Source: Octopus vulgaris
Lineage: Eukaryota
Reading direction: 5' to 3'
NCBI GenBank assembly: GCA_951406725.2
Contig: OX597815.1
Span: 80,104,001-80,168,000 of the forward strand
DNA length: 64,000 nucleotides
Shown here: in pieces, positions 1,791 through 63,142 of the stretch
Layout: the number at the start of each line of letters is the position of its first letter
How positions within the stretch are numbered: the stretch's first letter is position 1
The notes under the pieces: model-generated
What the model was told of the DNA's origin: nothing
The model's input: only the letters and a program-made list of their open reading frames with translations
Databases searched by the model: none
Translations under genes and position numbers: made by a program

Positions 1791-2308
1791 CTCTTTCTTT
1801 ACTACCCACAGAGAGGACAAACAAGGACAGACAAACGGATTAAGTCGATTATACCGACCCCAGTGCGTATTTATTTAATCGACCCCGAAAGGATGAAAGG
1901 CAAAGTCAAACTCGGCAGAATTTGAACTCACAACGTAAAGACAGGCGAAATACCTATTTCTTTACTACCCACAAGGGGCTAAACAAAGAGAGGACAAACA
2001 AGGACAGACAAACGGATTAAGCCGATTATATCGACCCAGTGCGTAACTGGTACTTATTAATCGACCCCGAAAATACCTATTTCTTTACTACCCACAAGGG
2101 GCTAAACATAGAGAGGTCAAACAAGGACAGACAAACGGATTAAGTCGATTATATCGACCCCAGTGCGTAAATGGTACTTATTTAATCGACCCCGAAAGGG
2201 TGAAAGGCAAAGTCGACATCGGCGGAATTCGAACTCACAACGTAACGGCAGGCGAAATACCGAAAGCATTTCGCCCGGCATGCTAACGTTTCTGCCAGTT
2301 CGCCGCCT
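1791..2308 (-). mobile_element. Head-to-tail cluster of tRNA-derived SINEs with a Meta-domain-like core (one near-full copy at about 2077-2308 plus partial copies)
   Basis: Repeated unit (minus) GGCGGCGA.CTGGCAGAAACGTTAGCA...GAGTTC.AATTCCGCCGA.GTCGACTTTGCCTTTCA.CCTTTCGGGGTCGAT.AAATAAGTACCA...GTGGGTAGTAAAGAAATAG. It has a tRNA-like A/B box head, and the core resembles the MetaSINE/Sauria-SINE central domain. Confidence 0.85.
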
Positions 2309-3329
2309 TTTATTTGTATGTATTTATGATATAAGTATATACACATACGTAAAAAGAAAGAGAAAGAGAGTGTGTAAGATAGAGAGAGAAAGAGGGCGGG
2401 GAGGTAGAAAAAAAGACGCACACTTGCATTCATACATGTTAGTATTTACATTAATATTTTGCTCCCCATGTATATATACGTATATGAGTGTATTTATGTG
2501 TCTCTTTCTGCATCTGTACATACATACATACATACATACATACATACATACATACATACATACATACATACATACATACAAGTGCTTATATAACATATAC
2601 AGAAACACACATACACATATGTCCATGTATGTATATACGTATGTATGTTTGTATGTATGTATTTATTTATGTGCATACACATATATATTGAATGCAAATC
2701 CATACATGCAGACATAAAGACGTGCATTAATACTGACAATGCGAGATTTGCTTTGATCATGTTCTGCGTGACATAACAATAGGTCAGAAACGGTGGGGTG
2801 TTTGCAACTACGGAGATTAATTCTCTTTGTGTTCATATATGTATATTTGAACACTTGTAGGACTATACACCTATGTGTTTGATAGCGTGTGTTTCACAGT
2901 GTGTTTGTGTGTGTCTTGTAATGAGTGTGTGCCTATGTTATTCTCTAGTGAGATGAATCTGGCTGTATCTTTAACTTTTCATGGCATGTTTTATATGAAA
3001 GTGTTTGTCTTTGTTTTGTTGTTGTATTATTGTTAGTGTGTGTTTTTGTGTGCGTGCGTGCGTGCATGCGTATGTGTGTGTACTTTTGTAAATGTGGTGA
3101 ACGTTAGTGAGCAACGGACATTTCTGCCAGATCTCAACATAATGGTGTTACTAGCTAAAACAATAACGAGTTTGGCTGGTCATATGGACTAGTAATATTG
3201 TTGATGATGCACTAATGGTGGCATTGGGAGCGATGGTTGCGGTGGAGGCAGTGGAAAAAATTATAATGACTATGCTGACGTTGGTGTTGGTTACATAAAA
3301 GCGGTGGCCTTATAAAACTGCGTGTCTGA

Positions 3330-4959: not shown

Positions 4960-6470
<1,511 letters not shown>

Positions 6471-18212: not shown

Positions 18213-18412
18213 TGTACTCTTTTACTTCTTTCAGTTATTTGATTGTGGCCATGCTGGAGCACCGCTTTTAGTCGAGCAAATCGACCCCAGGACTTATTCT
18301 TTGTAAGCCTTGTACTTATTCTATCGACTCTTTTGTCGAATTGCTAAGTTACGGGGACATAAACACACCAGCATCGGTTGTCAAGCGATGTTGGGGGGAC
18401 AAACACAGGCAC

Positions 18413-18420
<8 letters not shown>
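18213..18420 (-). mobile_element. CORE-like SINE, 3' half (5' half at about 22719-22795)
   Basis: Matches the family tail up to the internal microsatellite. The matching head in the same orientation lies beyond the 4.2 kb insertion. Confidence 0.8.
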
Positions 18421-18469
<49 letters not shown>

Positions 18470-18474
<5 letters not shown>

Positions 18475-20004
18475 TGATCAAAATAAAATAAAAACATGAT
18501 GCGAAGGATTCAGCGGTACATATGTTTCGGGCCTTTATTAGACAGATTTATAACAATGCATAATGTATGTCTGTGGCCTTCTTCAGCCGCGCACAACAGC
18601 TTCCACAAGGACATGTGTTACATCAGAAATTCTTGGTTGGGGATGCAAATCCTCTCATTCACGTACGACATAATGCGGCAGCAGCATAGAATTGAAGCGT
18701 CCATCTCTTTCTTCTCTCAATGTAGAATGAGGAAAATTGGATGTTGAGGTAATGTAAATAAATACATATATAGAGGTGAAGATGGAGGGGCGAGAGTTCG
18801 GGACGAGGGATAAAAAATGTATAAAAAGTGTAAGTATAGAATAATATAAAAATGTAGAGGATAAAGATATAAAGAGTTGTAAGGAGATGTAAAGGGGGTA
18901 TAAAGAAATATAAAGAAATATAAATAAATGTAAAGGCATAAGGTTATAAAGTAAAAATAGAAATAGAAATAAAAGTAAAAAAACCTGATAAAAACATGAT
19001 AAAAGTGTAAAAGAATGTAAAGATAAGGGATGTGTAGAGGTTACGGACCAAGCATGGTGGTCAGGAGATTGATAAAATTTAGTTGTAGAATTGTCAGTAA
19101 ATCAACAGTTTCGTCTGGGGACCTAATGCGTTGTAAATCAGAGCTGATGAGCATTTAATCTGGTTCCTTGAATTAAATGGACTTCTAGTACATACATATC
19201 ATCATGGATACATACACCCACATACACGCGTACATATACGCCTCCAAGCTTATAAGCATACACACGCACTCGCGTGTAAGCACGTACATAAACACACACG
19301 CACCCACACGCACGCGCGTACACACACATACATACAACAACAGAATATCCGCATGTATACACGGACATTATACGCGTACACACTCACATGTATATACGCG
19401 CGCCCATCACTACATACACACACGTATATGCCCACGCCTCTAGGTCTAGGTATAAGATATTAAAGGATGTGTATAAGAACGTATGTAAAGAATCCCGTAC
19501 TCATGTCTATACGTGCACGCACACACGGCTGTGTGTCCGTATGTGCGTGCACATATACACCCATATACACACACAGAGACATACGCGCACATGGGTATAG
19601 CTATAAGATATCGAAGTATGCATGTACATATATGCGTGTGCACATGTGTGTATGCGTATACACACGTACGCGGACGCTCGTATAGTCAAAAAGTGGATCC
19701 ATAGGTAAGTAAATAAACATATATGGAGGTGTAAAGCGATAAGTTATGGGTAAGAATGAGGGTAAGGGTAAAGATTAGAAATAAAAAATACAGTATAAAA
19801 TAAGAAATACAATGTAATAGTTAGAAATGAAATATAAGAATTATAAAAATTATAAGAGTTAAGGTAAGGAATGAAAATAAAAATGAGAATAAATGGAAGT
19901 AGAATAAAAGTAAAAATAAAATTAAAAATAAAAATAAATGGAAGTAGGATAAAAGTAAAAATAAAAATAAAAATAAAAGTACACATAAAAATAAAAATAA
20001 AATA
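18470..20004. repeat. Left arm of ~1535-bp inverted repeat
   Basis: Reverse complement of 21093-22627; the ORF track shows mirrored ORFs. Confidence 0.97.
18513..18590 (-). ncRNA. Type I hammerhead ribozyme (left arm)
   Basis: Minus: gcgg-CTGAAGA-aggcc...ggccc-GAAA-catatg-TA-ccgc. Confidence 0.85.
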
Positions 20005-20500
20005 AAATAAGATAAAAATATAATTTGGTAAAGTTTAACATGAGATGAAGGTGGTTGAAAGTTAGAGGTGTGTGTTAAACGTAGGGGCGGGCGGGGGGGA
20101 ACTGAAAATTGGAAGGGTGGGAAGTGGAGTTTGGCGGTGTGCGTTCAACATCCGAGTTAGAAATGTGAAAGGGTATAGATATAGGGAATTAAAGAGACTA
20201 CTTAGGGAGGATATGGGTGTAGGAGAAGAAATGTTTAGGGAAAAGAAGTCATATATGGGAGACAAAATTTGTATATATAGGAGGAAAATGCAGGGAACCG
20301 TATATGCACATACACACACCCACACACACACACGCACATGTACATATATATATATGTACACATACGTACACGTATGTACACATACATATGTACACACACA
20401 CACATACACATATACACGCACATATAGGAAAGCGGGATGTGCTGGAGCCGACAGGTTGCACCGGGTGGGAGGAAATTGCATGGGGGAGTTGGTATAGGAC

Positions 20501-21226
20501 CTAAGCATTGTAGTATTTGAAAGTATTAATAAGTTTATGTATACAGGATGGTTTGAACTCTGACCTTTTGTTAATAAGATTGTGTTTGTCTTTGAATTTC
20601 AAGATGTTCAGGAGTTCTACACAACATAGTTGGCATCCTGCTCTATTATTTAAATAAGGTGCAGCTGATCCGATGATGGACCATCTGAGTTTGAAGCCTA
20701 TGTATTTGTCTTTTAATTCCCAAATTCTTTTAGAGAGGGAGGTGCTGTTAGCCTTATGTCTGTGTCTCAGCGAGGACCGGTGGTTGTAGTATCTGGATTT
20801 CCAGGAGGTTGAGCAACCAATATAGGTGAGTGTGTTAAACTGAGTACTCACCTTACATGAGTATATTACGTTTTTCGCCCTACATGCGCCCTGCAGCGGG
20901 CACTCTGATGCACATCTGCAGTTGCATTGCATTGCATTATTCGGTCGTGTGCTGCTAATCCCAGGCGGAGGTGTTGCAATACGAGTGGGGGCGTTGGTAT
21001 CCTCCTGGTTGTTGATGGGTGTAGTATTTCCTCTGTTGTGTTGGCGGGTGTTATTACTAACTGTTTGGGTAGTATGGCTGCCAGTCTGGTTATATTTTAT
21101 TTTTATTTTTATGTGTACTTTTATTTTTATTTTTATTTTTACTTTTATCCTACTTCCATTTATTTCTATTTTTAATTTTATTTTTACTTTTATTCTGCTT
21201 CCATTTATTCTCATTTTTATTTTCAT
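20501..21226 (-). CDS. GIY-YIG endonuclease of Penelope-like (Naiad-type) retroelement, uninterrupted, no RT; N-terminal ~45 aa derive from the low-complexity arm
   Basis: CNCRCASECPLQGAC..NVIYSCKV...TYIGCS..WKSRYYNHRSS....STSLSKRIWELK...LRWSII..A.PY....CQLCCVE....LINKRSE....CIH. The VIY/YIG motifs, catalytic R, E and N, and the Cys/His clusters are typical of PLE endonucleases. Confidence 0.9.
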   Translation of the reverse strand: MKIKMRINGSRIKVKIKLKIEINGSRIKVKIKIKIKVHIKIKIKYNQTGSHTTQTVSNNTRQHNRGNTTPINNQEDTNAPTRIATPPPGISSTRPNNAMQCNCRCASECPLQGACRAKNVIYSCKVSTQFNTLTYIGCSTSWKSRYYNHRSSLRHRHKANSTSLSKRIWELKDKYIGFKLRWSIIGSAAPYLNNRAGCQLCCVELLNILKFKDKHNLINKRSEFKPSCIHKLINTFKYYNA

Positions 21227-22627
21227 CCCTTACCTTAACTCTTATAATTTTTATAATTCTTATATTTCATTTCTAACTATTACATTGTATTTCTTATTTT
21301 ATACTGTATTTTTTATTTCTAATCTTTACCCTTACCCTCATTCTTACCCATAACTTATCGCTTTACACCTCCATATATGTTTATTTACTTACCTATGGAT
21401 CCACTTTTTGACTATACGAGCGTCCGCGTACGTGTGTATACGCATACACACATGTGCACACGCATATATGTACATGCATACTTCGATATCTTATAGCTAT
21501 ACCCATGTGCGCGTATGTCTCTGTGTGTGTATATGGGTGTATATGTGCACGCACATACGGACACACAGCCGTGTGTGCGTGCACGTATAGGCATGAGTAC
21601 GGGATTCTTTACATACGTTCTTATACACATCCTTTAATATCTTATACCTAGACCTAGAGGCGTGGGCATATACGTGTGTGTATGTAGTGATGGGCGCGCG
21701 TATATACATGTGAGTGTGTACGCGTATAATGTCCGTGTATACATGCGGATATTCTGTTGTTGTATGTATGTGTGTGTACGCGCGTGCGTGTGGGTGCGTG
21801 TGTGTTTATGTACGTGCTTACACGCGAGTGCGTGTGTATGCTTATAAGCTTGGAGGCGTATATGTACGCGTGTATGTGGGTGTATGTATCCATGATGATA
21901 TGTATGTACTAGAAGTCCATTTAATTCAAGGAACCAGATTAAATGCTCATCAGCTCTGATTTACAACGCATTAGGTCCCCAGACGAAACTGTTGATTTAC
22001 TGACAATTCTACAACTAAAGTTTATCAATCTCCTGACCACCATGCTTGGTCCGTAACCTCTACACATCCCTTATCTTTACATTCTTTTACACTTTTATCA
22101 TGTTTTTATCAGGTTTTTTTACTTTTATTTCTATTTCTATTTTTACTTTATAACCTTATGCCTTTACATTTATTTATATTTCTTTATATTTCTTTATACC
22201 CCCTTTACATCTCCTTACAACTCTTTATATCTTTATCCTCTACATTTTTATATTATTCTATACTTACACTTTTTATACATTTTTTATCCCTCGTCCCGAA
22301 CTCTCGCCCCTCCATCTTCACCTCTATATATGTATTTATTTACATTACCTCAACATCCAATTTTCCTCATTCTACATTGAGAGAAGAAAGAGATGGACGC
22401 TTCAATTCTATGCTGCTGCCGCATTATGTCGTACGTGAATGAGAGGATTTGCATCCCCAACCAAGAATTTCTGATGTAACACATGTCCTTGTGGAAGCTG
22501 TTGTGCGCGGCTGAAGAAGGCCACAGACATACATTATGCATTGTTATAAATCTGTCTAATAAAGGCCCGAAACATATGTACCGCTGAATCCTTCGCATCG
22601 TGTTTTTATTTTATTTTGATCAATTTA
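21093..22627. repeat. Right arm of ~1535-bp inverted repeat
   Basis: Reverse complement of 18470-20004. Confidence 0.97.
22507..22584 (+). ncRNA. Type I hammerhead ribozyme (right arm)
   Basis: gcgg-CTGAAGA-aggcc(...)ggccc-GAAA-catatg-TA-ccgc: stem I GCGG/CCGC, stem II GGCC/GGCC, palindromic stem III, GUA cleavage triplet. Confidence 0.85.
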
Positions 22628-22718
22628 CTCCACCACCTACACCACTAAACGGTATACACAGGTGCTTATAATTATCAAGTACTCACCCCGAATTTCTATA
22701 TATATATATACATATATA

Positions 22719-22795
22719 CGAAGGGCTTCTTTCAGTTTCCGTCTACCAAATTCACACACAAGGCTTGTGTGGGACTGAAGACGGAACCATGTGGT
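22719..22795 (-). mobile_element. CORE-like SINE 5' half, internally deleted
   Basis: GGGCTTCTTTCAGTTTCCGTCTACCAAATTCACACACAAGGCTT..GTGGGACTGAA..CGGAACCATGTGG. Confidence 0.75.
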
Positions 22796-22806
22796 ATATA
22801 TATATA

Positions 22807-24303
22807 CAGTAGGGGGAAAAATATTCGTACATGTCAAAATTATTTATTTAATTTCTAATGAACAGAAATGGGATATATCAATACTATATTTGCATACACA
22901 TGCATAAACTAAGAATATACAAAGGAAACTAATAAATTATAGTAACTAAGGAATTTATATTCAATTATAAATATTTAGGGGTGGAAAATGTATTCGTACA
23001 GAATAAATTTATGATTTTCTATGCCACAAAATACTGTTAAAATAAATTTTTTTTTTACTAGAACTTTCTTGTTTGTTCCAAAAATGTTATCAGTTGTCGT
23101 TTTTAAGTGTCAAAACGCTAGCTTCTTCATTCAGCACTGAGACAACATAAAGTAGTATCGTAATAATGGCGAAAATTAAAGAACTCACAAATTCAGTGAA
23201 AAACTTAATTATTGAACAGTGGAAAGCAGGTAAAAGCTACAGGAAAATATCAAAGACCCTTTGTATTCCATCTTCTACCATATCTTCATTTATTCAAAGA
23301 TATAAAAAATCGGGAACTATTGAAAACAGAATAAGATCCGGTACACCACGCAAGATTTCCCCTAGATCTTTAAGAAAAATGAAGCGAAGAATCGAAAAAA
23401 ACGCAATGATCACAAGAAAGGAGTTGCAAGATGATTTGCTAGCTTCAGGGACCAGTGTTACACTACAAACAATCAGCAATGAACTTCATAGGAATGAACT
23501 GAAGTCACGCTCTCCTAGAAAATCTCCGCTGTTGACTAAAAGGCGTAGAGATGCCCGTTTAAAATTTGTTTATGAACATAAAGATAAATCTGATGCATTC
23601 TGGGAAAATGTTCTATGGACCGACAAGTCGAAAATTGAATTGTTTGGACGAAATTCGCGTAGCCATGTTTGGAGGAAAGATGGTACCGCCTATTCGCCGA
23701 AAAACGCAATTCCTACCGTAAAGTTTGGAGGTGGCAACATCATGGTGTGGGGGTATTTCTCTGCAAATGGTACTGGGAATTTACATGTGATAGATGGTAG
23801 AAGGAATGCAGAGATGTACCAAAATACTTTGAACAATATTTTATGGGTCTCTGTAGAAAAGCTCCAGCTTTGTTAAGGGTGGGTTTTACAACAGGATAAC
23901 AGCCCTAAGCACACGGCGAAAAGAGTATTGTCGATCACAATATAAAATTATTAGAATGGCCAAGCCAGTCACCTGACTTGAACTTCATTGAAAATTTGTG
24001 GCGTTATTTGACAATTAAAATTCATTCAAGAGCCCCAACGTGCTTTGCAGATTTGAAGAAAATTTGTCAAGAAAAAATGGGGAAAATTCCTAAAGTGACA
24101 TGCGATCATTGATTAAGGACTACAAGAAGAGATTGGTTGAAGTGGAACTGAATAATGGTTATGCTACGAAGTATCAAATCAGAATTATCAATTATTTATG
24201 TTCTGTACGAATATTTTTTCACCCCTAAATATTTATGATTGAATATAAATTCCTTAGTTACTATAATTTATTAGTTTCTTTTGCATATTCTTAGTTTATG
24301 CAT
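22807..24303 (+). mobile_element. Tc1-like DNA transposon with long IR-DR type inverted repeats; right end truncated
   Basis: TA|CAGT left end. The GAAAA.TATTCGTACA motif occurs at about 22816 and 22984. 22901-23003 is inverted at 24201-24303. Confidence 0.9.
23166..24175 (+). pseudogene. Tc1 transposase, premature stop at 23874-23876 plus a deletion in the DDE region
   Basis: HTH N-terminus, VLWTDKSKIELFG, PTVKFGGGNIMVWG; after the stop it continues WVLQQDNSPKHTA...LEWPSQSPDLNFIENLW. Confidence 0.93.
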
Positions 24304-24986
24304 TTTGTTCATGTGTTTACATAATAGAAGATAAACCTAGCTTGAATAGGAAACTGGAATGGAACACTAGCACACACCACAGCATAAGACAGAAGAAGAT
24401 CCCCATAAACTGGTAACAATATAAACAAAACTAAAAACATGATAAAATACACAGATAAATAAACAAATGGAAGTAAATAACTATATACATTAAAAAAAAT
24501 AATAATAATAAAATAAAATAAAAATAATAATAATATGTAGGTGTAAACACATGAACAAAATAAAAATAAACAAAAACCAAAATAATTACACGAACGTATA
24601 TAAACAGGAGATACAAATATTACAGGCACTTCCCTCCCACACACACTAACTAAACATAGACACACATAGAGGTATACGCATGCGCAAATGAAGACACATA
24701 CAATAGGAATACAAAATGGCTGACCGTCAGTAAGGGGAGACACACAAATAAGAAAGAAGAAAGCAAAGGACCGCTGATGAGGTCACAGGAGTGTGACGAA
24801 AGAACTCTGGCCGAAATAAGATTAAGATTAATGTAGAAAAATAAATAACGCTGAAGCAAAGTAACACCAAATATATAGTGCGTGTGTTTTTATTGGCTAA
24901 ACTGGCAAAATGACCATTCCTAAATACAACAATATCTTTTTCAACACACGATTCCCATAAAAAATCTTGCAAAACAAATATATAAA

Positions 24987-38134: not shown

Positions 38135-38173
38135 ACATCTGTAATATGATATGTGACGATTAGTCGGTTGCCA

Positions 38174-38236
38174 TAATAAAACTCAGAGTTTCGGATGTCG
38201 GGGCAGAAGTGTGCTCCGGCATCTCGTCAGTTATTA
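38174..38236 (-). ncRNA. Type I hammerhead ribozyme
   Basis: Minus: taataa-CTGACGA-gatgccgg...ccgacatcc-GAAA-ctctgag-TT-ttatta. Confidence 0.8.
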
Positions 38237-38571
38237 AGACAAACAAAAATGCAATGAAAACGACCGTTAAATAAAGGGAAGTTACTATGAAGATGACCGT
38301 TATTGAGACAAACAAAAGACCTGTGAGAATGATCCGAATAGGGAGAAAGAAAAAAACTCGAAGAAGGAAAACCCACGCTCATAGAATCCGCACACGTGGA
38401 TTCTATGAGCGTGAGCTTACCTTCTTCGAGTATTTTACTTTCTCCCTATTCGGGTAATTTCCCTTTATTTAACTGTCATTTTCGTTGCTCTTTCGTTTGT
38501 TTCAATAACGGTCATCTTCATAGTAATTTACCTTTCTTTATCGGTCATTTTCATAGCATTTTTGTTTGTCT

Positions 38572-38633
38572 TAATAACTGATGAGATGCCGGAGCAGACT
38601 TCCGCCCAACATCCGAAACTCTGAGTTTTATTA
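38572..38633 (+). ncRNA. Type I hammerhead ribozyme
   Basis: taataa-CTGATGA-gatg...catcc-GAAA-ctctgag-TT-ttatta, with a 6-bp stem I. Confidence 0.8.
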
Positions 38634-39685
38634 TGGCAACCAACTAATCGTCACATATTATATTATAGATAAATTCCTCTATTTACATAATGTCGAGGGC
38701 TCATTCATTCTTTTGTTGTCATTTATTATTATTAATATATATACATACATACATACATACACACTCACACACATACACACACACACACACACACATATAT
38801 ATAAACAATATGTAATTGCGTGTTTATACATGGTAATAAAATAAATATCTTTCATCAAACGCTAGATTTTTTTGTCTTTTGTGATCTTGTCTTGGTATAT
38901 AGACATAACGGTTCCATTTATTCTTGAAGATTTTTTTTACCCACACATTCAACGTGTGGGTAATCCAAACCCTAAACCCTAACTCTAACCTTAAACCGCA
39001 CCTCCAACTAATTCTAAGGCCTAACCTGAAAAATTTACCTGGGATGAATTTCGTACTCCACTATGTTATTCTTCATTACCAATCAAATTATTGATTAATA
39101 CATTCTGGAAGGAGGAAATTAAGCCACGAGGGTGGGGAAAATATTCTAGGCAAAACTTCCCCAGGGAGAAATTTTAGAAGGGGGAATTTCATCTTAGTAC
39201 ACTGGAAAGACAAAATTCATATTACTGTATCACATACTACTAATTCTAAGTAAGCAACAGCATACAACAAATGGTACAATACTATTGATAACACAACTAT
39301 CAAAGTCGACACATGGTCTCTAAAACCACATTATTACAGTTTGTTTAAATATAGAAACCTTCATTTGATGCTTCAGTCGATCAAAATTTTGGTAATGTTT
39401 CTCGAAGCAACCATTCTCAAATCCGTTGATTTTTTCGTATCCATGACCTACATATCCATGACACGTCAGTATCTTGTCACAGTCATAATGCAGAATGTTA
39501 ATAGTTTGGCATTCCAGCTGGTTAAATGCAACCACCATAAAGATCATGCCGTAACAAAACCTCACGAAATGTTATATTTGGTATAGTGAACACATCAACA
39601 TATGAAATAATACTAGTATTGACACTAGTTTCATATACATGTATGTGTGTGTGTGTGTACAGATACATACATACATACATACATG

Positions 39686-47612: not shown

Positions 47613-47849
47613 TATTTATTCACCATTACATGTGTTTCATTTGCTAATATGAGTTATAAAATTGTACTCGCAGCAAAAACATGTAAGATATCTTATATTA
47701 GAAATTCTTCAGACAGAGAGTCAAATAATATCTTATCTTATTCCCTTATTAGATAAAATTCTAATGGGAGATATCTTATATGTTTTTGCCACGAGTACAA
47801 TTTTGTAACTCCTACAAGCAAATGAAACACGTATAGTGGTGAATAAATA
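47613..47849. repeat. Diverged inverted repeat (~95-bp arms)
   Basis: TATTTATTCACCA...TGTTTCATTTGCT...AAAATTGTACTCG..GCAAAAACAT.TAAGATATCT and its reverse complement. Confidence 0.75.
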
Positions 47850-55411: not shown

Positions 55412-57605
55412 ATGTCAGAAATTGATCTATCAGTTAGGACTGAGGCGATAGAGTGGAATTCATTTTTGAAGGATATACCTATTCCCTGCAGGAAAGAATA
55501 TCCACAGGACCTGATTAATCAGCTACAACACTTTATAAATAGAATGAAATGGAAGGCTTACTACCACAATGACAAAAATCTTAATAAGAATAATGTTAAC
55601 ATCATAGAAGAAACAGACTACATAAGAAGAAACTTCAAATCTAAACAGGAACCTCCCAGTAATAGAACTCTACATGACTTCGAGGAGAAAATATGGAATA
55701 TAGTGAAAAATATCAAATTCAAGAAATACCCTAAGAGACACAACAAGCACCTCAGCAACTTGGCTAGAAAAATTGAAAAATTAAAGAACCAGGATAGAAT
55801 TATAGCTCAATCTGATAAAACCAGGAACTTGATACACCTCTTTATGATAATCTACAAGAAAAGGAAATAATAAAACAAATATAAAGTAGTTAACAAAAAC
55901 TATTTAGATAATATTAACATAATCTCAAAAAAATCATGGTTAAATATGGTATTGAGAATAGAACTGAACCATATGTCCCGATGCATCCAAGAATAACGAT
56001 TAAATACCATAAAGATAATTCTTATTCTAACCCCCAAATAAGGCTGATCTGCCTAGCAAGTCAGACATAGGCAGACTTAGTAAATTAATATTAGATAAAT
56101 ATATAGATAAATTAAATAGGTTAGGTAATCTTAAACTCTGGAATTGCACCCGTGACACTATCAAATGTGTTAATAATACTCAGGATACTATTCATCTATC
56201 AATGAAGTGGTTCTAAATAAGCCCTATCATATGCCATGAGAAAAGTAAATATGTCATTCGAAGAAGTGAAAGTATTATTAGCCGCGAGGAAATCTAGTAT
56301 AAAATATAAAGAAAAACTATGGGCAAGAAAAGACACAAGAGATTGTTTTGATATAAATATGGGTGCATCAGATTCTGCCCAAGTTACCGATCTTATTGGA
56401 TTATATCTTTTATAAATTCTATCTAGAAAGAGAATTTATGAATATTGAGGGCGGTCTCTTTAGGGACGACCTACTACTTATAATCAGGAACTGTGTTAGA
56501 AGGTCCTTAGAATGCCTTAAGAAGAAATTGCATAAATTCTTTAAGAATTTTGGCCTAGGGATATCTATAGAGAATGAACGATATGCTGTAAATTACCTAG
56601 ACGCCAACCTTAATCTTATTGCTAATAAGATCCATCCATTCCATAAGTTGCATGAAAATTTAATGTACATTAGTTCTCTTAGTAACCATCCTAGATCAGT
56701 TAAAGAAGCTTTAATAGATATTATAGGCAAAAGAATATCTATGCTACCCTCTGATTATGACACTTTTAATAGACATGCCCCATATTATAATAAGGCAATA
56801 AAAGAAGCACGAGATAACTCTAAAATAAAATTCTTTAATCATTACGATCACCTTATTAATACAACAGATAATCCTAATACTCAATCTAACAGCATAAATA
56901 TGAATAATAGAAGATAATATCAGAAACTAAATAAGGATAAAAACTATATATTTATTATCAATGATTACAATAATAAAAATAGTAATACTGATAATTGGAA
57001 TATAATCAATAATAGGAAACATAATACATTATATAAGCGGAGATATAATATACCTTCGAATAACACACTGATACCGATAGTGTGTAATGATTATAATATA
57101 AAAATATAAAGGATATTATATGGTTAATTATTCCATATGGGGCCCAAATGATGACTAATATTATTAAGGAGTTACTAAAAACTGTAAAAGTTTATTTGGA
57201 AAAGGACTACATTTATTTTAGCATATTTTCCAATAAAACCATAAGAGTAGGCTACTTAACATCGAGGAATGTTAAGGTAATATCATCTCCTCAATAAATA
57301 ACGAGAAATTAATTATTAGAACAGCACAATAAATAATAGCTCTAGATATACTATAACAGCTAGTGATAGAAGTCATAATCCACATATAGATAATTGTTCA
57401 TGTCGTGATAAGACTAAATGTAAGCTCTCTAATAATTGTAATATTGACAATGTAATTTATAAATGTATAGTAATCTGTAAGAACAATAATACTAAAAATA
57501 TAAATAAGGCATATATAGGATCCACAGGTAATGAAATTAAAAAAGAATCTCCCAACGCTACCAGATTTTTAAAAATCACAATTTAAGTAAGTCCACAGGT
57601 TTAAG

Positions 57606-57637
<32 letters not shown>

Positions 57638-57898
57638 GTGAAATAGAAAGATGAATAATCTTGTTGCAGATTAATCAAAAGTTTAACCGATACCTTGGTA
57701 GCAAAAATCACAGCAGAAGACAGCACGGTTGGAGGTACAACCATATGGTGTTGCAACCGTGCGTTGGTGCGGATAATTGAATATTAATATTATTAGTGAA
57801 TTGAAGTAATGGAGTTGAACGAAGATTGAACAGAAATCGTGTAGAATGAAATAAAACGATTTCTGTTCAATCTTCGTTCAACTCCATTTTTTCAATTC

Positions 57899-57947
<49 letters not shown>

Positions 57948-58160
57948 GAATTGAAGTCTAGAAAAAGAGAGTACACCCTTAGCTGGAGTATAATAGGTAG
58001 AGCCCACTCTTATAATATTGGGAGTAAAATGTGCTTATTATGTATAACAGAATTTACGGAACTGCTACAGTCTAGAGACGAATTACTAAACACATACGGA
58101 GAAAGTGGAGTGAAATATAGAAACCAAAGTAATTTTACTTTCAATAAATTTAAATACTGA
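55412..58160 (+). pseudogene. Near full-length Naiad-type PLE RT + GIY-YIG ORF, frameshifted and interrupted
   Basis: LKDIPIP..Y...FINRMKWKA, FKSKQEPP, SDKTRN, FDINMGASDSAQVTDLIG, GLFRDDL, VNYLD, YISSLSNHP, CSCRDKTKC....C..DNVIYKC, AYIGST, WELK...WSIIGRAHSY....CLLC..E....LLN. Confidence 0.92.
57797..57899. repeat. Hairpin with 33-bp perfect stem, inside a ~340-bp TA-flanked insert in the PLE endonuclease
   Basis: 57808-57840 pairs with 57856-57888. Confidence 0.9.
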
Positions 58161-62503: not shown

Positions 62504-62736
62504 TCGTCATTTCTGTGATTTGATAAATATATAGATAGTTGTTCATATATCTGCGTGTAAATGTTAATATGCATGTGCAACCTAAGGTGGATTTATTATA
62601 CAATTTTATATGTACGCATGACTTTATATGCACGGAAACACTCACTTATGTATGAATAGGTTCGTACATATATACATACATATATACACACGCGCGCGCA
62701 AACATCTGTATGTATATGTATCTATGTATGCATTCT

Positions 62737-63142
62737 TTACTTATTTCAGTCATTAGACTGCAACCATGCTGGGGAACCACCTTGAGAATTTTTAGTAGAA
62801 ACGAGTCGACCCCAGGACTTATGTTTTAAGCCCGGAGGCTTTTCTATCGGCCTCTTTTGCTGGACCGCTAACTTATAAGGACATAAACATATCACAACCG
62901 CTTGTTAAACGTTGGTGGGGACAAACACAGACACACAGACGTACATACACATATATACTACAGGCCTCTTTCAGTTTCCGTCTATTTAATCTATTTAATC
63001 TATTTAATCCACGCACATGGTTTTGGCCGGCCCGAGGATATTGTAGAATATACTTACCCTAGGGGACTAAATCCGGTAGACACTTACGCAGTGGGACGGA
63101 CTCCAGAACCATGAGGTTGGGAAGCAAACTTCCCACCACAGA
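62737..63142 (-). mobile_element. Degraded full-length CORE-like SINE
   Basis: The family tail, internal (CA)n and head are all recognisable. Confidence 0.8.

Follow-up and report, generated by a model that had tools for sequence, protein, structure and literature searches.

A probable young Hydra-clade Penelope-like insertion, 5′-truncated and joined head-to-head to an inverted 3′-end copy, in Octopus vulgaris

The window analyzed here is a 64,000-nucleotide stretch of Octopus vulgaris contig OX597815.1 (GCA_951406725.2, positions 80,104,001 to 80,168,000, forward strand), in which a near-palindromic element encloses a GIY-YIG endonuclease frame between arms bearing outward-facing hammerhead ribozyme motifs. 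We are confident that the element is a single young insertion of a 5′-truncated Penelope-like element (PLE) of the Hydra clade, fused head-to-head with a shorter 3′-end copy in inverted orientation. This reading is carried by the anatomy of the element, the Hydra-type motifs of its nuclease, an interrupted target repeat, a high-copy family and a depth gradient in sequencing runs, four of which were mapped in detail (X1, X2, X4 and X9; the DNA runs are X1, X2 and X9, and X4 may be RNA). The features of the element and its borders, in window positions, are as follows (UTR, untranslated region).

18470–22696: whole element, a near-palindrome of ~4.2 kb (sequence, flank comparison)
18470–21092, sense −: main 5′-truncated copy (linker remnant, nuclease, 1.9-kb 3′ UTR, hammerhead)
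18470–20004, −: left arm, the outer 1535 nt of the 3′ UTR (arm self-alignment)
21093–22627, sense +: right arm, an inverted second copy of the 3′ end (arm self-alignment)
21085–21092: head-to-head junction zone, 8 nt, beside an AT-rich tract
21229–20501, −: open frame, 242 amino acids stop to stop, in-frame ATG at 21226
20504–20929, −: Hydra-type GIY-YIG endonuclease domain (CxCX5C, VIY..YIG, R, H, CxxC..E, N..CxH)
18513–18590, −: type I hammerhead motif, same sense as the nuclease frame, predicted cut after 18517
22507–22584, +: type I hammerhead motif, predicted cut after 22580
22628–22696, +: one-sided tail of 69 nt, family sequence downstream of the hammerhead end
18423–18471: left (TA)n target tract (sequence, dust/TRF)
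22697–22718: right (TA)n target tract (sequence, dust/TRF)
18218–18422: left flank, first half of an interrupted short interspersed repeat (BLAST)
22715–22766: right flank, second half of the same repeat (BLAST)

Anatomy, target site and age

The arms, each 1535 nt long, align with six substitutions (18497, 19077, 19506, 19870, 19900 and 19931, with their mirror positions) and no indels, a divergence of 0.39%. The copies that they terminate are unequal, 2.6 kb on the left and 1.6 kb on the right, and meet at a junction zone identical to the adjoining left-arm bases in 5 of 8 positions; a low-complexity tract occupies ~21090–21224 (TRF, dust). From stop codon to hammerhead the 3′ UTR spans 1915 nt (18586–20501). 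Because this region alone amounts to ~2 kb, a full-length copy of the family would exceed 4 kb. Its sequence is microsatellite-like (RY-rich and A-rich) and occurs as family sequence in all three DNA runs. When 18 relatives bearing a reverse transcriptase (RT) were compared with the element, all 18 lacked any match to it beyond the nuclease, leaving no sign of an RT. The mirrored arms, the intact nuclease frame with its VIY/YIG, R, E, N and Cys/His motifs, the lack of RT and the (TA)n on both flanks had all been noted in a first-pass annotation of the stretch, and each was confirmed.

Comparison with other repeat copies indicates that the element sits inside the (TA)n tract of one short repeat, which it interrupts. 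The left half of this repeat matches three other copies in the window at 71–88%, and in each the second half follows directly (BLAST). These uninterrupted copies lie at 5266–5648, 62736–62984 and 13711–13459, with halves adjoining across a microsatellite; two pairs passed our filter, and the third (13711–13459) was excluded solely for an overlap of a few bases between its two matches. The flanks are thus collinear halves of one repeat, which argues for an insertion and not a mirrored read. We take the repeat to resemble an octopus short interspersed nuclear element.

The right arm continues into the 69-nt tail, and a contig from X1 (record 8) bridges 22555–22665, joining the two. Depth at tail position 22646 is as high as at the arm end (143,152 in X1 and 263,596 in X9), and the 64-kb window holds no further copy of the tail. 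The low arm divergence marks the insertion event as young; under the published calibration, in which a distance of 0.09 corresponds to 25 million years (PMC13282606), its age would be roughly half a million years, with the host assumed. A search of the supplement to that paper, which treats O. vulgaris repeats, did not find the hammerhead of the element.

This layout has ample precedent. An inverted 5′-truncated copy at the 5′ end combined with a one-sided tail is standard for PLEs (PMC8557442, PMC8969392), and in Adineta vaga head-to-head is the commonest PLE arrangement, for which self-priming has been proposed (PMC3846280). Like the present element, Penelope-13_HM of the Hydra clade has a long inverted 5′ copy, of 966 nt, and hammerheads on both strands (PMC8557442 supplement). 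Penelope from Drosophila virilis and Pen from A. vaga share the head-to-head inverted repeats and one-sided tail, but belong to another clade, which has the CCHH motif, and the inverted pseudo-long terminal repeats (pLTRs) of A. vaga measure ~200 bp versus 1.5 kb here.

Nuclease, hammerheads and clade assignment

The open frame comprises 45 low-complexity K/I codons from the inverted arm, 55 linker codons and then the nuclease, in which every nearly invariant catalytic residue is retained. The truncation point is 55 codons upstream of the CxC motif, within the low-complexity linker that separates thumb from nuclease, and the stop codon stands right after the nuclease domain, followed by the 3′ UTR and hammerhead. 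Although the Pfam GIY-YIG match is weak (E 0.82), the structure model of the nuclease (predicted local distance difference test 88) finds its best fold match in I-TevI (Z 8.8, root-mean-square deviation 2.4, 89 aligned), with T4 EndoII at Z 7.1. Foldseek returned no match at E ≤ 0.001, and GIY-YIG nucleases made up 9 of its first 10 rows.

Hydra-clade PLEs are defined by a C-terminal GIY-YIG domain, a CxCX5C linker, CxxC and CxH motifs around E and N, and absence of CCHH (PMC8557442). The element has CxCX5C, CxxC..E and N..CxH; CX2-5CxxC is absent, and so is CCHH, with one Cys between VIY and YIG versus two by definition. Insertion into (TA)n is also a Hydra-clade character, and the nuclease aligns by eye with the Hydra alignment in the PMC8557442 supplement. 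The same C-terminal nuclease, Cys/His motifs and (TA)n target, again without CCHH, are seen in Penelope-13_HM and Hydra-1_Obim. The hammerhead motif lies at the 3′ end of the sense strand, as in Hydra-clade PLEs when layouts are compared by eye with File S2 of PMC8557442, in which many Hydra hammerheads have an extra base flanking stem II on either side, a trait shared by the motif found here. In contrast to these relatives, the present copy has lost its RT and has a 3′ UTR of ~1.9 kb and a tail of 69 nt. The lengths of the 3′ UTR and the tail are its only unusual traits; Hydra-clade elements are generally short, <3 kb, a description and not an absolute limit (PMC8557442). As nuclease and hammerhead differ by eye from those of Hydra-1_Obim, the element is probably a separate family.

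Two other identities were rejected. The first-pass annotation had favored a recent, truncated Naiad-type insertion with an inverted 3′ copy, of which the truncation, inversion and recency stand and the Naiad label does not. Naiads do share a GIY-YIG nuclease, a (TA)n preference and truncated, inverted insertions, but their nuclease is N-terminal to the RT, carries CX2-5CxxC and CCHH, and is not accompanied by a canonical hammerhead (PMC8557442); here the nuclease ends the frame with no RT downstream, both motifs are lacking and a hammerhead is present. Non-long-terminal-repeat retrozymes are likewise non-autonomous and possess a type I hammerhead related to those of PLE pLTRs (bioRxiv 10.64898/2026.07.22.740005). 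They are, however, non-coding head-to-tail tandems, whereas the element is an inverted pair around a coding remnant and contains no tandem unit with a hammerhead.

A phmmer search for relatives gave 4501 proteins at E ≤ 0.001, the best 150 at 33–46% identity; among those 150, CxCX5C occurs in 106, a thumb-side SYS/SYC in 52 and the RT motif YRDD in 9. Relatives at ~35–45% identity show RWK/DKT/YRDD motifs. In a set of 100 relatives selected for protein length, the RT DD motif is upstream of the nuclease in 96 and solely downstream in none, and 98 place the nuclease within 80 amino acids of the C-terminus. Metagenome loci agree: the RT precedes the nuclease in 78 of 79, picked with an RT-bearing query from short assemblies, and a hammerhead motif lies downstream in 45, at 94–548 nt after the nuclease. 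Any kind of inverted repeat was found in 5 of the 79 and none like that of the element, a weak test given short, RT-selected assemblies. Three of these loci (L038:1-132, L065:3-173 and L045:1-54) show short inverted copies upstream of RT and endonuclease with differing breakpoints, and L033, L052 and L061 show facing copies or hammerheads on both strands. Scans of viral contigs with relatives produced no matches. The nearest named relative with a like linker comes from another octopod, Argonauta hians, whose protein GAB1597860.1 combines RT, thumb, a similar N/T/Q-rich linker and an element-like nuclease.

Both hammerhead motifs keep all core bases, with the GUA site (22578–22580) 47 nt inside the arm end, a 4-bp stem I and a 2-bp stem III closed by a palindromic loop; one unpaired base flanks each side of stem II. 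The earlier description of a complete type I hammerhead about 45 nt inside each end therefore holds for the core and needs two amendments. With so short a stem III, the "complete" hammerhead is a minimal, dimer-type form, and the unpaired 69-nt extension places the right-hand motif ~115 nt from where the element really ends on that side. Animal PLE hammerheads typically have such short palindromic stems III and are thought to act as dimers, cleaving poorly in vitro (PMC4209133). At minimum energy an 80-nt piece folds into the hammerhead three-way junction (−13.0 kcal/mol), with a stability no greater than that of shuffled sequences (z 0.02), and a longer, 116-nt piece adopts a different fold. 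Rfam did not match the motif at the gathering score or at E ≤ 10.

The first-pass annotation further envisaged transcripts that both self-cleave and fold into a panhandle, and these two outcomes are predicted to exclude each other. Computed pairing of the hammerhead with its complement reaches −151.7 kcal/mol versus −13.0 for the ribozyme fold, and a read-through RNA would meet the complement first. Such an RNA would form a 1.5-kb duplex trapping the hammerhead and would more likely enter small-RNA silencing than support mobility; long inverted Penelope copies do yield small interfering RNAs matching their inverted parts (PMC3681739).

Family depth, formation and alternative explanations

Of the 24 sequencing runs listed, 20, from 9 studies and three organisms, contain 59–68% of the words of the spacer. 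In X2, single contigs over the nuclease have a raw depth of ~1900–3100, not scaled to single copy, pointing to a high-copy nuclease family. Summed contig depth is not copy number, and its ratio of arms to nuclease is 19 (X1), 43 (X2) and 10 (X9) at the hammerhead end and 0.9, 1.3 and 1.7, respectively, at the inner arm. Such a drop from hammerhead end to nuclease is what variable 5′ truncation produces. If a fixed palindrome dominated, the inner-arm ratio would be at least 2, to which X9 comes close and of which X1 and X2 fall short. At nine or more sites the arms agree with each other and differ from 90–100% of the depth in all three DNA runs (40 of 112 rows of arm-versus-run variants were listed), a pattern suggesting that they stem from a single template or a single subfamily; at 22600, the right arm alone differs from the family sequence. 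We made no use of a depth dip in bin 21026–21182 because of the low-complexity tract nearby. One contig from X4 (record 23) departs from the element at 19789 and continues for 160 unaligned nucleotides.

How such an insertion could arise can be sketched. Devoid of RT, the element would itself be dead, a passenger produced by a master copy elsewhere that encodes the RT. The nuclease of the master copy would cut both strands at (TA)n, and each chromosomal 3′ end would prime reverse transcription near the 3′ end of the family RNA. The left copy would start proximally, acquiring no tail and reaching 2.6 kb, and the right copy distally, with the 69-nt tail and a length of 1.6 kb. Both reverse transcriptions would then stall, and the truncated ends would be joined at AT-rich microhomology. 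Since every copy has its hammerhead at the 3′ end, head-to-head joining would turn the hammerheads outward automatically, and priming from both cut ends would account, without extra steps, for this orientation, for the difference in length between the copies and for a tail present on one arm. A PLE protein has been reported to cleave and extend both strands, starting at two sites that bound the tail, and the hammerhead to be dispensable for insertion in vitro (PMC11167929). Alternatively, the left cDNA would fold back at the 5-of-8 match and prime itself, which would yield identical arms and require later trimming of the left tail. Of the two routes, we lean towards two-ended priming.

Several observations sit less comfortably with a truncated Hydra-clade insertion. 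The inner-arm ratio in X9 is near the value expected of a fixed palindrome, and the depth gradient could be made steeper by other families with the same hammerhead end. The 1915 nt between stop and hammerhead far exceed the 94–548 nt of the 45 metagenome relatives, and the tail is longer than the 30–40 bp described for PLEs (PMC8557442). Truncation left the nuclease intact and in frame with an ATG, and the family's own RT was not found in protein searches for close homologues or in scans of metagenome, viral and prokaryote contigs. Finally, a contig from X4 (record 24) matches 20508–21084 (577 nt) and continues for 145 unaligned nucleotides. It was dropped as proof of other copies continuing to the RT side: it stops at the low-complexity tract, so that RT-side sequence and the same arm cannot be told apart.

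Several of these points would also suit an RT-less, nuclease-retaining family copied in trans, as a fixed-junction palindrome or an internal-deletion derivative, possibly expressing the 242-residue chimeric frame. We consider this very unlikely. It would account for the intact catalytic residues, the in-frame ATG, the missing RT and the X4 contig, which fits the same junction, as well as for linker depth that stays high up to 21058 (1920 in X2 record 16 versus 2220–3114 over the nuclease); moreover, the literature already contains PLEs that are non-autonomous and Terminons with stand-alone GIY-YIG frames. Against it stand the inner-arm ratios of two of the three DNA runs, and the depth profile accordingly lends no support to the family of endonuclease-only, ribozyme-capped elements raised in the first-pass annotation. 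An ordinary explanation is at hand for the nuclease as well, because any copy broken in the linker retains it whole. The in-frame ATG at 21226 is indeed supplied by the inverted arm, as had been pointed out, but is weak evidence: 586 of 1386 arm junctions (42%) would provide one by chance, and the 45 added codons are K/I-rich low complexity. In the inverted arm the pLTR points away from the frame, judged by the promoter position in PMC3846280, which also allows a bidirectional promoter, and the duplex would be predicted to bury the hammerhead. In its strongest form, this idea describes spreading RT-less palindromic Penelope derivatives with a fixed junction and a working nuclease under the inverted-arm ATG, that is, a nuclease-donating parasite of Hydra elements, to which we assign a slimmer chance still. 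Recurrence of the junction at many loci would make this the first nuclease-only PLE family to be described, our literature searches having found no account of one, and would show that nuclease and RT can be provided separately.

Less probable again are two separate events, either two insertions of the same subfamily head-to-head at one microsatellite or an older copy that later underwent inverted duplication or gene conversion. Arms that share variants against the run majority would likewise result from conversion or from a local subfamily, and the one-sided tail also speaks for this reading; yet the junction contains no (TA)n or target remnant, and head-to-head arrangements are the usual product of single PLE insertions (PMC8557442, PMC3846280). 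Least probable is an assembly artefact, a fold-back read or misjoin of two copies: no listed contig spans the element in any of the four runs, but a fold-back would mirror the left flank, where the right end instead passes from family tail into the same short repeat in the same direction, and the arms differ at six sites, with the right arm alone departing from the family at 22600.

As a single truncated Hydra-clade insertion, the element is of little import, adding a further copy to a clade and a layout that are already known. It has modest use as a clean record of PLE integration, with near-identical arms, a one-sided tail and a recoverable empty target, which is consistent with priming at the two ends of a double-strand cut. 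It also draws attention to a high-copy Hydra family whose 3′ UTR is unusually long.

Other elements in the window

The window holds a second, non-coding instance of the inverted layout, a decayed palindrome of 534 nt (38137–38670), which belongs to another family, lacks a frame and lies beside a (CA)n tract. Its arms are 88% alike in the aligned part, a short hairpin occupies its center, and hammerhead motifs face outward at 38578 (+) and 38230 (−). Matches to a loose hammerhead pattern at 24774 and 44682 (+) and at 47712 (−) are probably due to chance.

A degraded full-length Hydra-like PLE is present at 55442–58151 (+), with its RT upstream of a nuclease broken up by (TA)n tracts and an insert; this nuclease is 38% identical to that of the element over 55 amino acids, with no similarity at the DNA level. 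Tail-to-tail with it lies a degraded Hydra-like RT fragment (59389–58305, −), and the two show no similarity to each other by BLASTN or TBLASTX. Right after the interrupted short repeat, a Tc1/mariner-type transposon with apparent long terminal inverted repeats spans ~22808–24330, and its transposase frame (23151–23876; Pfam HTH_Tnp_Tc3_2 and HTH_SB) is interrupted by stop codons.

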